Shown: piece after piece, positions 49,703-53,959 of the stretch | How positions within the stretch are numbered: the stretch's first letter is position 1 | How the letters are laid out: each line of letters starts with the position of its first letter | Sequence record: PZ445437.1 | Direction: 5' to 3' (one strand) | From: a phage | Length of the DNA stretch: 64,000 nucleotides | Position numbers and translations under genes: made by a program | The notes under the pieces: model-generated | Seen by the model: only the letters and a program-made list of their open reading frames with translations | Databases searched by the model: none | Told to the model about the DNA's origin: nothing

Positions 49703-49918
49703 TTAATCCTTTTTATCAAGAACCGCATTCAGCTTGTTAGTAATTTTATCCAGACGCTCATTGAACTCACTAGAAGATAAGCCCTTTTCTGGAGAAATTA
49801 AACTAATCACGAAAAATATAGCAATAAAAGGAATAAGGAAAATAGCTCCAACTGCCATAAACAGAAAGAATGTTACAGTTGTAAGAAAATCAGCTAAACC
49901 TTTACGAAATTTATACAT
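49703..49918 (-). CDS. Small membrane protein (71 aa)
   Basis: Hydrophobic segment TVTFFLFMAVGAIFLIPFIAIFFVISL. Confidence 0.45.
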   Translation of the reverse strand: MYKFRKGLADFLTTVTFFLFMAVGAIFLIPFIAIFFVISLISPEKGLSSSEFNERLDKITNKLNAVLDKKD

Positions 49919-50033
49919 ATTTTACCCTTAATTGATTAACCAAGCATTGATAAGCACTAAACTATATTGCGAATAAAATTCTGGACCAAAATGAAAAATC
50001 ATATCATTTATAGTATCCATAATGTAATTCAAT

Positions 50034-50504
50034 TTAATCATGTGTCCACACCCCATCGGTATTTGACCAAAGTCGCTGATTATCTGATCCTCGCCACAGC
50101 TTTTTAGTCGGAAGATTTTTCTCATACTTCCCATCAATAATAACATCAACATATTTAAGCATTTCTAGTTGTTTAATATCTTCAAACTTATATCCTGTCC
50201 ACAACCAAATGCTTTTATTGGGATAAAGATTTTTAATAGTTTGAACCACAGAGTGAATCACGTCTCTGTTATCAGGATAAAGAGGGTCACCTCCGGTTAT
50301 AGTCAATCCTTCTATATAATCATTATTCAAACATTCAATTAATTGTTCTAGTGTTTCACCAGTGAATGGAACACCATTTCTAGCATTCCATGTTGATTTA
50401 TTATAACACCCTTCGCATTTATGCAAACAACCTGTAACGAAAAGAACTGTCCTGCATCCAGGACCATTAACAAAGCAGCACGGGTATATTCTGTCATAAT
50501 TCAT
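50034..50504 (-). CDS. nrdG: Anaerobic ribonucleotide reductase activase NrdG (radical SAM)
   Basis: 156 aa, the length of T4 NrdG; Cys cluster CLHKCEGC. Confidence 0.88.
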   Translation of the reverse strand: MNYDRIYPCCFVNGPGCRTVLFVTGCLHKCEGCYNKSTWNARNGVPFTGETLEQLIECLNNDYIEGLTITGGDPLYPDNRDVIHSVVQTIKNLYPNKSIWLWTGYKFEDIKQLEMLKYVDVIIDGKYEKNLPTKKLWRGSDNQRLWSNTDGVWTHD

Positions 50505-51333
50505 TTATATATTTCCAATTATAGCCTTCAACACTTTTACGTTCGCCATTTAAACATTTTAAAATATTTCCTTTGCTAGAAATATTAAAATATTTTGCTG
50601 CGTCTGGTATATAATTAAATGTTTTTAAAAGAACACCATCTTTATATGCGCCAAATAAATTAAGAGTATATTTTTCTCGAAGACGCTGATGTTTCCTTTT
50701 CATAACCTCAGGATTTGCATACGCCAACTTCAATGAATTTCTGTGTTTTTCTTTTACTTCAGGTTTTTGCATTGCTAACTTAGTTAGCCTGGAAATTTTA
50801 TTTCTAACTTCGTCAGTTTTCATTGCATTTGACAAATTTAATAAAGTTTTATTTCTAACTTCAGGTTTTTGCATTGCTAGCTTAGTTAGTTCTCTATGTC
50901 TTTTTCTAAAATCGTCATCCTTCCATATATTTTTCGATAATTTTGACATAGAGCGGTGAAATAATTCCTTTTCACTGGAATACAATTTAAAAATTTCATC
51001 CAATTCATCCGCATTAAATCTATCGGTATTCGAGTTTATCATTCTATGAAAGGCATAACACATTTTACTATTGCTTGTTTTAGCTAAATAGTAATGAGCT
51101 AACGCATGGTCATAATATGACAAATTAACAATATTCCATTTATCTGTTTTATATTCAGGAAATATAGATTTGGGAAGCACGTGATGTGCTTCCGTTTTTC
51201 CTTTTATTTTAGGATTATTATAATTTTTTGTTATCAAATCAACATATGACAATAGTAAATCATTATTTTCTTCAAATATTAAAGATAATTTATCATTCAC
51301 AAAATCGCAAGGATAAAATCTATCATAATTCAT
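50494..51333 (-). mobile_element. mobE: HNH homing endonuclease gene (MobE-like) inserted between nrdD and nrdG
   Basis: 279 aa with HNH motif (EAHHVLPKS...NIVNLSYYDHALAH); position matches T4 mobE; first 14 codons nearly duplicate the nrdG 5' end. Confidence 0.7.
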
Positions 51334-53147
51334 TGGTGTTTAACCCTATGCATGATTTCTTTATTTTTACCGAGATTAAATCCGCGTTCGTTCGGATTTC
51401 CCAAATAACCACATGTTCTTCTTATTGTGTTCATCTTTTTAGGATCAGTTTCTCCACAAATAGAACAAACAAATCCGTTTTCAGTAGGAGTCATTTCATG
51501 GGTACTTCCACATGTAAAACATTTATCTACTGGCATATTAACACCAAAATAATCTAAATGTTGTGCAGCATAATCCCATACGGCCTCAAGACCCTTTAAG
51601 TTATTTTTCATATCAGGAAGTTCAACATAAGAAATGTGACCACCTGTCGCAATGAAATGATATGGCGCTTCACGAGAAATCTTTTCAAACGGAGTAATAT
51701 TTTCTTCTACTGAAACGTGGAAACTGTTAGTGTACCAGCCTTTATCGGTAACATCTTTTACACTTCCATATTTTTCTGTATCAAGTTTACAGAAGCGATA
51801 ACAAAGGTTTTCAGCAGGAGTAGAATACAAACTAAAAGCAAACCCAGTTCTTTCAGTCCACTGTTTAAGACGAGCATTCATTTTAGTTAAAATTTCTCGT
51901 CCAATATCACGACCTACAAGAATATTCAATTCGTGAATACCAATGTATCCTAGAGACACTGAACTTCTGCCATTTTTAAATAACTCAATTATATCGTCAT
52001 CAGGTTTAAGACGAACCCCGAATGCACCTTCTTGGTAAAGAATAGGAGCAACAGTTGCTTTAACTCCTTTTAAGGAACTAATTCTACACATCAAAGCTTC
52101 AAAACACAAATCCATTCGCTCATTGAACAATTCGATAAATTTCTGTTCATTGAACTGTGTTCCAATATAAGAATCTAATGCGATACGAGGAAGATTCAGT
52201 GTTACAACACCAAGATTATTACGTCCATCAAGAATTTCATTACCAGTCGAATCTTTCCATACGCTCAAGAAACTACGGCAACCCATCGGAGAAACAGGAA
52301 CAGATGAACCAGTGATAGCTTTATTGTTCTTAGCTGAAATAATATCAGGATACATCCTTTTGCTTGCGCACTCTAGAGCAAGCTGTTTAATATCATAGTT
52401 CGGATCGTCTTTATAAAGATTAACACCTTCTTCAACAAACATAACAAGCTTAGGGAAAATAGGAGTTATCCCATCACGACCAAGACCTTTAATACGATTT
52501 TTCAGAATTGCTTTCTGAATCATTCGTTCAGTCCAGTCAGTTCCCGTACCAAATGTAATTGTTACAAAAGGCGTTTGTCCGTTTGAACTAAAGAGAGTAT
52601 TTACTTCATATTCATAAGCTTGGAATGCATCGTATACATCTTTTTCTGTTTTAGATTGAGCATAATTCAGTGCATCGGCGATTTGCCATTTTTCTGCATC
52701 CTCAATATGTTTTGCATAGGTGCGTTTAACATAAGGAGAAAGTACTTTATCTACATTAGCAAAAGTCGTTCCGCCGTATTGATGGGAAGCAACCTGTGCA
52801 GTAATTTGTGCCATAATTGCAGTAGCAACTCCAATTGATTTAGGAGTTTCAATCTGCGCATTACCAAGCTTAAATCCGTTCTCAAGCATTCCTTTTAAAT
52901 CTACTAAACAGCAATTAGTAAAAGGCAATGATATACTGTAATCTAAATCATGAAAATGAATTAATCCAACATTATGGGCATTTACAATATGACTTGGAAG
53001 AATACGACAAGCGATATGTTTAGAAACAATACCGGCCATTAAATCTCTTTTTGTTGGAAAGACGCGAGAATCTTTGTTGGCGTTTTCTGTATTTAATTCT
53101 TTATCTTTATTTGAAATAAAATTTAAAACATCTTTTTCTAAAGACAT
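51330..53147 (-). CDS. nrdD: Anaerobic ribonucleotide reductase NrdD (glycyl radical enzyme), uninterrupted
   Basis: 605 aa, the length of T4 NrdD; C-terminal glycyl-radical motif RRTCGYLG; no intron. Confidence 0.92.
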   Translation of the reverse strand: MSLEKDVLNFISNKDKELNTENANKDSRVFPTKRDLMAGIVSKHIACRILPSHIVNAHNVGLIHFHDLDYSISLPFTNCCLVDLKGMLENGFKLGNAQIETPKSIGVATAIMAQITAQVASHQYGGTTFANVDKVLSPYVKRTYAKHIEDAEKWQIADALNYAQSKTEKDVYDAFQAYEYEVNTLFSSNGQTPFVTITFGTGTDWTERMIQKAILKNRIKGLGRDGITPIFPKLVMFVEEGVNLYKDDPNYDIKQLALECASKRMYPDIISAKNNKAITGSSVPVSPMGCRSFLSVWKDSTGNEILDGRNNLGVVTLNLPRIALDSYIGTQFNEQKFIELFNERMDLCFEALMCRISSLKGVKATVAPILYQEGAFGVRLKPDDDIIELFKNGRSSVSLGYIGIHELNILVGRDIGREILTKMNARLKQWTERTGFAFSLYSTPAENLCYRFCKLDTEKYGSVKDVTDKGWYTNSFHVSVEENITPFEKISREAPYHFIATGGHISYVELPDMKNNLKGLEAVWDYAAQHLDYFGVNMPVDKCFTCGSTHEMTPTENGFVCSICGETDPKKMNTIRRTCGYLGNPNERGFNLGKNKEIMHRVKHQ

Positions 53148-53959
53148 AATTCTAATTTATCCTTTTGAAATTCTTCGTCTAAATATGGGTTCCAACCCAT
53201 TTTAAACCTTTTGATGAAATTATCAATTCTAAATTTCGGTAAGTTTAAATCCGCAAAAATAGATGATTTACTTTTAAAATCTGGACTTAAATAATCATAT
53301 AAAATTTCTGCGTATTTTAACCATAATATACAAGTACCAGATTTAATTGCTCTCGGAGTTTTCCAAGGTTTTACACCATACATCGGATTTCCGCTTCCTT
53401 TATGCCTGATAGAAGATGAAATTCCAATTTTAATTTTAGCTTCCTTTGTATGCGAAAATCCACGATGTGGATTTTCTTTCCAGTATTTTTTAGAAGCTTC
53501 TGATATTTTCTTTCTGGCTAAATTAGTATGATGCTTTCCATAAAATCCATGATTTTTGCCTTTATTACGATTTCTTTTAATCATGGTTATTGATTGCTTT
53601 TCTCTAGTTTCTTTAGAAGGAGAAATACCATATGTCGTAAATTTGCCATCAGCATATGCTAAATTAAAATACTCTTTATTCCATACATCTTTTTCTATAT
53701 TCTTTTGAAATTCAGCTTCAATGCTAGTTATTTGTTCATCTCCGACTAATTGAAAATATAATATTTCAACTTTCGGCGTTTCTTTCAATAAGGCTTTTTG
53801 AAATTCGGAAGATGACGAAGACGAATAATAAAATTTACCATTTTTATCAATAATATTCGTTCCATCAAAAGTGCAATTGGTTTTACTTCCAATGTAATAA
53901 TATGGTGGGGTTTTAGCATTAATTCTATTAATAAATGATAGTTTATATACTACATTCAT
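53138..53959 (-). mobile_element. GIY-YIG-type homing endonuclease-like gene (Seg-like, 273 aa)
   Basis: N-terminal VYKLSFINRINAKTPPYYYIGSKTN (GIY-YIG-like) and NUMOD-like repeats (GKNHGFYGKHHT, HRGFSHTKEAKIKIG, GSGNPMYG); 3' end overlaps the nrdD start. Confidence 0.55.

Follow-up and report, generated by a model that had tools for sequence, protein, structure and literature searches.

The 64,000-nucleotide (nt) stretch of phage DNA analyzed here (record PZ445437.1; hereafter the window) contains an nrdH-nrdG-nrdD-gene 49 block of a T4-like phage, in which an endonuclease gene standing between nrdD and nrdG opens with a near copy of the nrdG start. Every gene of this region lies on the minus strand, and its DNA is 99.6% identical to that of Escherichia phage Paracelsus. 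The parts of the locus are given below, with product lengths in amino acids (aa); A and A' denote the two versions of the 40-nt start.

51330..53147, minus strand: nrdD, large subunit of the anaerobic ribonucleotide reductase, 605 aa, no intron (open reading frame list; Pfam NRDD, E=5e-171)
51330-51332 and 51331-51333, minus strand: TGA stop of nrdD and ATG of the endonuclease gene, overlapping as ATGA
51294..51333, minus strand: copy A, the apparent resident nrdG start codon with codons 1-13 (MNYDRFYPCDFVN), now predicted to serve as endonuclease start and N-terminus
50494..51333, minus strand: putative HNH/NUMOD-type homing endonuclease open reading frame (ORF), 279 aa; codons 1-13 nrdG-derived, 14-279 endonuclease-specific
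51094..51192, minus strand: predicted HNH catalytic motif region, residues 48-80 (E48, H50, H51, N67, H76, H80)
50465..51293, minus strand: 829-nt segment missing from insert-less relatives, running from endonuclease codon 14 to the stop and through A'
50465..50504, minus strand: copy A', the apparently cassette-borne replacement nrdG start (MNYDRIYPCCFVN)
50494-50496 and 50502-50504, minus strand: endonuclease stop, 8 nt downstream of the nrdG ATG; the two genes overlap by 11 nt
50448..50493, minus strand: endonuclease-linked variant tract, nrdG nt 12-57 (from comparison with empty relatives)
50034..50504, minus strand: nrdG, activase of the anaerobic ribonucleotide reductase, 156 aa, intact (TIGR02491, Pfam)

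The endonuclease ORF begins ATGAATTATGATAGATTTTATCCTTGCGATTTTGTGAATG (MNYDRFYPCDFVN) and nrdG begins ATGAATTATGACAGAATATACCCGTGCTGCTTTGTTAATG (MNYDRIYPCCFVN). A first-pass annotation of the window had quoted these strings, and both proved exact in letters and position, in register with the start codons of two minus-strand genes. The two starts are identical at 31 of 40 nt (77.5%) and at 11 of 13 aa; the similarity starts precisely at the two ATGs and breaks off at nt 40, and the flanking sequences are unrelated. Apart from self matches, the start-to-start match is unique in the 64-kb window (tblastn E=0.004, blastn E=0.013). Taken alone it is only modestly significant, and it is the comparative data presented below that settle that the match is real. 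The annotation had staked its account on two points, that the similarity exceeds background and that relatives without the insert do not hold both copies, and it was right on both. The nrdG product is complete, with a TIGR02491 NrdG score of 197 bits (cut-off 126) matched from residue 2, and a Pfam Fer4_12 match at E=9e-49. A promoter and terminator scan of positions 49900-51800 found promoter-like sites at chance level (10 found, 10.8 expected).

Relatives with and without the insert

We surveyed about 900 phage records and read closely 9 insert-bearing loci (those of the window, PST, Paracelsus, Ec_MI-02, TB004, Roth04, SmallBear, UTI-K1 and KP01) and 28 insert-less nrdG starts. Insert-less relatives have a single copy of the start, and in them the nrdD stop overlaps the nrdG start (ATGA). 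AugustSocin and 8 IMG/VR Tequatrovirus loci show nrdD followed directly by an nrdG that starts MNYDRFYPCDFVNGPGC, the arrangement that the first-pass annotation had predicted for genomes lacking the insert. Copy A is identical at all 40 nt to the nrdG start of the insert-less Tequatroviruses L018 and L019. A homologous endonuclease, with 87% protein identity, is found in the Klebsiella Jiaodaviruses Roth04, SmallBear, UTI-K1 and KP01. Its gene opens there with MNFDRIYPSDFVN, a perfect 40/40 match to the nrdG start in the insert-less Jiaodavirus-type contigs L031 and L039, and the nrdG behind it again starts MNYDRIYPCCFVN.

In all 9 loci read, from two genera, copy A carries the local allele and A' the CC allele (MNYDRIYPCCFVN), which is foreign to Jiaodavirus. 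The A' versions vary at synonymous sites only, 6 of which differ between the genera. Relative to the native alleles of L018 and L019, A' differs at nt 12, 16, 18, 21, 24, 28-30 and 36. Since the same peptide occurs in two genera while A matches the local lineage, A' appears to travel with the endonuclease. The left copy is local and the right copy is constant across genera; the two copies therefore come from different parents. The first-pass annotation was correct that the duplicated block marks the insertion event, but it had the roles of the copies reversed. It had the endonuclease carrying the copy, whereas the copy at the endonuclease 5' end is the resident nrdG start and the one heading nrdG is the imported, divergent version. 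A transposon-style target-site duplication was also considered and is ruled out, as the repeats are 40 nt long and 77.5% identical, the left belonging to the local lineage and the right being the same allele in two genera.

Linkage of A' to the endonuclease was also examined in the wider set of records. A BLAST query made as a chimera of the endonuclease 3' end, the native start and nrdG gave at least 9 mismatches in 31/31 records aligned over the junction, so that in none of these is the endonuclease followed by a native nrdG start. All 28 insert-less nrdG starts, distant Slopekvirus-type ones included, have Asp at codon 10. In A' this codon is TGC (D10C), a three-base change from GAT.

The mobile unit appears to be 829 nt long and to lie at nrdG nt 40/41, comprising endonuclease codon 14 to the stop plus A'; comparison of filled with empty sites (AugustSocin, L018, L019) leaves the junction ambiguous within the common TTTGTNAATG (nrdG nt 31-40). 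The insertion is thus 40 nt inside the nrdG coding sequence and not at the nrdD/nrdG junction, where it had first been placed. To the left of it, the window shows 0 differences in 429 nt from AugustSocin, the nearest insert-less relative. To the right the two differ at nrdG nt 42 and 55-57 only, and then not until nt 684 (about 630 nt). The dense patch of the variant tract spans nt 12-30, including codon 6 ATA and the codon 10 change from GAT to TGC, with further changes at nt 36, 42 and 55-57. In nt 1-40 of nrdG there are 8-11 differences, versus 0.9-6% in nt 41-471 (Fisher p 1e-3 to 4e-10). A search for a co-conversion tract by sliding identity between Tequatrovirus and Klebsiella loci showed higher identity in the initial ~100 nt of nrdG, which is inseparable from protein conservation. 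By these comparisons nrdG has apparently been restored as a complete ORF by A', and the structural account as a whole (a borrowed start, a cassette and a restored nrdG) is very probably correct.

Several further features of these loci were seen. In KP01 (L049, 2410..2425) a 2-nt insertion (ATATATATAA versus ATATATAA) shifts the endonuclease stop to a TAA directly before the nrdG ATG; KP01 thus lacks the 11-nt overlap, and the overlap itself is therefore not essential. The UTI-K1 record (L048, 1758..2594) names the endonuclease "ribonucleotide reductase of class III activating protein" and thereby shows two NrdG genes. This label looks like an annotation artefact, which the borrowed NrdG N-terminus explains. 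Jiaodavirus-type Klebsiella phages have a 77-aa ORF between nrdD and nrdG (L003/L004, 1853..2086; L031/L039, upstream of 3001). Its stop falls inside nrdG codons 9-10 (TCTGAC), tying the unusual nrdG start MNFDRIYPSD to an overlapping frame, and the ORF is retained upstream of the endonuclease in insert-bearing phages. Directly past the insertion point, at 50449..50464 on the minus strand (nrdG nt 41-56), is a perfect 6-bp hairpin, GTCCTG-GATG-CAGGAC, followed by AGTTCTTTTC. It was flagged by the terminator scan. Its pairing owes its perfection to the endonuclease-linked substitutions (nt 42 and 55-57), the native form being GCCCTG...CAGGGT.

The endonuclease gene and its start

The gene had first been called mobE-like, a name that has to be dropped. 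The best match to a gene labelled "mobE" (that of RB43) is 42% over 30% of the query, and the gene position differs: mobE sits between nrdA and nrdB (PMC2988022), a position also seen in RB6. The gene is not an ortholog of T4 mobC either, as the BLASTP match is 38% over the 60-aa HNH core only and the N-terminus is that of nrdG. A tblastn search with T4 MobC gave 32 records at 95% or more and all others below 60%, and the window-type endonuclease was not among the matches listed. In Yersinia phage PST this endonuclease is labelled "mobC" by position only.

The endonuclease matches PHROG 655 "homing endonuclease" (E=5e-37) and phrog_12434 "HNH endonuclease" (E=7e-15). An alignment with paralogs of 35-39% identity shows residues E48, H50, H51, N67, H76 and H80 to be invariant, and the motif region aligns with the HNH core of T4 MobC (E=1e-7). 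An AlphaFold model has a mean predicted local distance difference test score of 71.7, with strands at 47-51 and 68-72 and then a helix at 73-84, a beta-beta-alpha element at the motif. A phmmer search against PDB sequences found no match. The endonuclease is carried by a minority of relatives, 32 of the roughly 900 records, its presence or absence falling at one fixed site between otherwise collinear relatives, which agrees with the first-pass description of a free-standing homing endonuclease gene of the HNH type. A scan of IMG/VR found no locus with the endonuclease, the matches covering its first 13 residues only and representing nrdG of empty sites; the A' DNA pattern had no match in that scan.

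Between Tequatrovirus and Jiaodavirus copies of the endonuclease, synonymous divergence (dS) is 0.83 and the ratio of nonsynonymous to synonymous divergence (dN/dS) is 0.08, while dS between the same genera is 1.5-1.65 for nrdG and 1.9 for nrdD. The low ratio, with a dS below that of the flanks, therefore indicates strong purifying selection and a transfer between genera more recent than the divergence of the genomes. The endonuclease has thus spread horizontally between genera.

From its sequence, the endonuclease appears to have no start codon of its own and to be read from the resident nrdG ATG through nrdG codons 1-13, thereby inheriting the ATGA stop/start overlap of nrdG with nrdD. The first in-frame Met after codon 1 is M91, past the catalytic His pair of the HNH motif, and paralogs within its subfamily start with sequences unrelated to it (MKNFKLD..., MKDLLKSK...). 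If translation starts at the ATG of copy A, the predicted N-terminal peptide of the endonuclease is MNYDRFYPCDFVNDK. It is very improbable that copy A is instead a dead nrdG remnant, in frame by chance, with the endonuclease starting at an internal non-ATG codon or being untranslated and decaying. Two in-frame TTG codons (L28, L33) could provide such a start, and the first five residues are of low confidence in the structure model. Yet neither TTG is preceded by a purine-rich run resembling a Shine-Dalgarno sequence, no in-frame ATG occurs before M91, beyond H50/H51, and copy A carries the native ATGA coupling of nrdG to nrdD. Furthermore, the frame from A into the body of the gene is open in 9/9 loci across a dS of 0.83 and at a dN/dS of 0.08.

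A likeness to NrdG could also arise by chance, from the usual N-terminus MNY..IY of Mob-family HNH proteins. MobE (MNYQKIYNDLISRA), MobB (MNYLNIYNLLIEKG), the KP27 endonuclease (MNYQKIYDSLISKY) and T4 MobC (MNYDRIYSNLVNSA) do begin alike, and the likeness of T4 MobC to NrdG is probably a property of that family. For T4 MobC itself a second nrdG fusion is ruled out, since its MNYDRIY start corresponds to the family N-terminus MNYxxIYxxLI seen in MobE, MobB and the KP27 endonuclease. For the window-type endonuclease, however, a chance likeness is scarcely credible: the match spans 13 codons and, in two genera that differ in their nrdG allele, is perfect over 40 nt to the local form. Paralogs of its own subfamily start differently, as noted above, and it has only the HNH core in common with T4 MobC.

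Within the endonuclease gene is a 32-nt direct repeat (31/32 identical; 50756..50787 and 50858..50889, minus strand) that encodes a twice-occurring LTKLAMQKPEV helix unit. A database variant of 242 aa, P0003, lacks exactly one 37-aa repeat unit, presumably through recombination between the repeats.

Endonucleases at the nrdD/nrdG junction and a proposed mechanism

SegH is said to stand in place of mobC in RB3, LZ2 and other phages. Among the records surveyed, the nrdD/nrdG junction was found in the following states.

T4-type MobC: 32 records
SegH: 73 records
Window-type endonuclease: 32 records
Empty: about 748 records

Judged by sequence, the window-type endonuclease appears to be a third, unrelated occupant of this hotspot, besides MobC and SegH. 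Our preferred explanation of the locus is a mobile homing-endonuclease cassette lying 40 nt inside nrdG at a known endonuclease hotspot, to which we assign a probability of about 0.7. That the target lies at the insertion point and, jointly, that A' is an immunity determinant is a more tentative proposal, which we would put at somewhat less than an even chance. The first-pass suggestion that the duplicated block marks the homing target is likewise tentative.

According to this explanation, the endonuclease would cut or nick the nrdG of insert-less genomes at nt 40 or close to it, probably in the conserved stretch that encodes D-F-V-N-G-P-G. The nrdG nt 31-60 (TTTGTGAATGGCCCTGGATGCAGGGTCGTT, encoding FVNGPGCRVV) are identical in both recipient lineages, which makes them a natural candidate site. 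In a mixed infection, repair of the double-strand break from an insert-bearing genome would copy the cassette into the empty one. The insert-bearing genome would be protected, its site being split at the left junction and presumably blunted at the right by the A' changes (nt 18, 24 and 28-29; D10C). Altering the GA of the Asp codon would force an amino-acid change, which would explain D10C. Translation of nrdG would be coupled to that of the endonuclease, discouraging loss of the element, and the endonuclease would itself inherit the translational coupling of nrdG to nrdD. The two-copy structure would most simply have arisen by one unequal crossover at microhomology, between a parent with native nrdG and a parent with the endonuclease upstream of an A'-type nrdG.

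A structure in which the host start is borrowed and a variant start handed back gives a precise predicted target (nrdG nt ~24-60) and predicted resistance bases. A near-isogenic pair, Paracelsus with the insert and AugustSocin without it, exists in the BASEL collection.

The A' allele beside SegH, and comparable systems

A scan of metagenomes for the A' pattern found one contig, in which the upstream gene is SegH. The same eight substitutions (nt 12, 16, 18, 21, 24, 28, 29 and 30) follow about 64 of the 73 SegH cassettes, so that A' is not unique to the window-type endonuclease. Native nrdG starts stand behind SegH in the other 9 records (C2-3, moha, five Pu-Krd-SF isolates, LZ2 and TH58). In RB3 (L053, 1430..2365) and PP01 (L054, 1450..2390) segH is flanked within its cassette by a diverged nrdD end (the last ~75 nt) and an A'-type nrdG. 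The SegH-linked nrdD C-terminus reads ...GTPSVVPWNLGKMKEMVKRVKHA versus ...GNPNERGFNLGKNKEIMHRVKHQ, and the SegH ATG sits in ATGCATAGG, a 9-mer that also encodes M-H-R near the native nrdD end. Among the empty junctions, A' follows a native nrdD end in only two, those of U5 (L045, AY262145, 2526..2565) and Shigella phage ESh24 (L046, 3061..3100), in which the nrdG start encodes MNYDRIYPCC. From these distributions, A' is an endonuclease-associated allele of the nrdG start that is not private to the window-type endonuclease.

These data bear on a different view of A', that it is a hitch-hiking relic flank from a SegH-type or otherwise foreign parent, unrelated to specificity, with the real target perhaps further into nrdG or in nrdD. 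Here A' would not be replaceable because there is no homology between the endonuclease end and nrdG nt 12. The identical eight-site patch beside most SegH cassettes and at the metagenomic SegH locus speaks for this view, as do the 9 SegH-bearing records with a native start, which show that one occupant of the site, at least, can do without A'. A target elsewhere also has a precedent in T4 MobE, whose gene is inserted between nrdA and nrdB but which cuts at a different place, within nrdB (PMC2988022). On the other hand, linkage of A' to the window-type endonuclease is 31/31, compared with about 64/73 for SegH, and A' is found in only 2 of about 748 empty junctions. D10C requires three base changes at an otherwise invariant Asp codon, and the peptide has been kept while 6 synonymous sites differ between genera, which argues for long co-inheritance under selection, although not by itself for immunity. 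On this balance we consider the hitch-hiking view unlikely.

Several other points also weigh against our preferred explanation or parts of it. No Pfam HNH model scores above threshold for the endonuclease, which has only sub-threshold NUMOD-like matches at its C-terminus, and a Foldseek search of the whole AlphaFold model against PDB gave nothing at E<=0.001. Our literature search found no report of cleavage, nicking or mixed infection for the window-type endonuclease. SegH and Hef reportedly also cleave the genomes that encode them, so that immunity is not universally required of free-standing phage endonucleases. Between the two native recipient alleles ~9 of the first 30 nt differ, a divergence as large as that of A' from either one, and only nt 18, 24 and 28-29 separate A' from both. 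Recombination of the left flank with empty phages could be enough to keep copy A local, without selection, and A' may be a flank inherited from a SegH-type parent rather than an immunity determinant of the window-type endonuclease. Even for T4 mobC, a 2010 review lists a free-standing HNH gene with activity not determined and target unknown (PMC2988022). Details of the SegH and MobC cleavage sites were not found in the literature searched, the full text of Sandegren et al. (2005) lying outside it.

The flank allele common to SegH and the window-type endonuclease may record the replacement of one endonuclease by another. Three histories are plausible: SegH displaced the window-type endonuclease and kept A'; the window-type endonuclease arose beside an A'-type nrdG; or the endonuclease was lost by recombination in ATGAATTATGA, the initial 11 nt common to A and A', an event that would give exactly the U5 and ESh24 arrangement. 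U5 and ESh24 may have lost an endonuclease by this route, and their junctions would be candidates for empty sites that resist cutting. Carried furthest, the proposal describes a natural "home-and-rescue" cassette, in which a start-less HNH endonuclease takes the initiation site and first 13 codons of its target and carries a recoded rescue copy of them, whose few discriminating changes (nt 18, 24 and 28-29; D10C) would make the occupied site uncuttable, with A' persisting as a resistance scar through endonuclease turnover (SegH, U5, ESh24). This extended form we regard as possible but doubtful.

An endonuclease at the nrdD/nrdG junction is, as such, textbook T4 biology, and the general picture of homing is unchanged. 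T4 mobC occupies the same hotspot in the same orientation, is of the HNH type and shows presence/absence polymorphism; its start likewise overlaps the nrdD stop, and its 3' end runs over the first 11 nt of nrdG (...WKYKDEL* versus ...WKYINEL*). It differs in encoding 210 rather than 279 aa, with 38% identity over the 60-aa HNH core and an N-terminus of its own Mob type, and in lying between nrdD and nrdG rather than inside nrdG. The T4 nrdG start is not the CC allele. SegH, a GIY-YIG protein, replaces mobC in some phages (Sandegren et al. 2005, as described in citing papers). Like the window-type endonuclease, it lies at the same junction, is in most copies followed by the same A', and brings diverged host sequence (the last ~75 nt of nrdD). 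Unlike it, SegH belongs to an unrelated nuclease family and lies upstream of the nrdG ATG, with its own start and no duplication of nrdG codons.

Free-standing HNH endonucleases inside genes of nucleotide or DNA metabolism, where extra sequence preserves host function, are known from mobE in nrdA of Aeromonas phage Aeh1 (genes in pieces) and mobA in T4 topoisomerase gene 39/60 (PMC3653736; PMC3045599; bioRxiv 10.1101/2022.08.31.505936). In those cases the host gene stays split or needs translational bypassing, whereas nrdG here is one intact ORF whose 5' end is a variant duplicate, the original start having passed to the endonuclease. An insertion of the Aeh1 genes-in-pieces type was accordingly rejected for this locus, the nrdG behind the insert being full length (TIGR02491, 197 bits). 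Free-standing phage homing endonucleases are usually described as intergenic and as having their own starts; here the gene lies inside nrdG without splitting it.

More distant parallels exist. In Allomyces atp6, a mitochondrial free-standing endonuclease ORF reportedly brings a replacement terminal gene segment, and synthetic "home-and-rescue" gene drives carry a recoded copy of the gene that they disrupt. Both share with the present locus an insert in a gene, a diverged replacement and an original part left as a duplicate; they differ in being from another kingdom or artificial, and in usually involving the 3' end. To our knowledge, reuse of the displaced copy as the start and N-terminus of the endonuclease has not been reported for either. 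No exact analog of an Allomyces-type replacement was found in the fungal mitogenome papers searched. In the phage literature searched, which does not include the full text of Sandegren et al. (2005), where the duplication may already be noted, we found no description of the third-occupant lineage or its position inside nrdG, nor of the borrowed nrdG start with its 13 codons and the replacement start shared with SegH.

Two other observations concern endonuclease genes and their flanks. The T4 nrdG (L005, 5447..5917, minus strand) is a mosaic: nt ~31-330 are near-identical to Jiaodavirus (0-4 differences per 30 nt versus SmallBear), and nt 331-471 are of the Tequatrovirus type. This foreign tract of ~300 nt, directly downstream of mobC, is as expected if the endonuclease drove co-conversion. 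In the window, a second endonuclease gene lies beyond nrdD, at the ATGA junction of gene 49 and nrdD (53138..53959, minus strand). It is a seg-like GIY-YIG/NUMOD3 gene of 273 aa (PHROG 7504), ~40% identical to SegG over the N-terminal half and found in 49 phage records; Paracelsus lacks the extra GIY-YIG gene upstream of nrdD. The gene comes with a strongly diverged first ~225 nt of nrdD (52920..53147), with ~85 differences and MSLEKDVLNF... in place of the MTIEKEIEGL... of seg-less relatives, whereas the last 300 nt of gene 49 differ at 4 sites between seg-bearing and seg-less phages. The diverged nrdD 5' end looks like a co-converted, resistant flank on the same principle as that proposed for A'.

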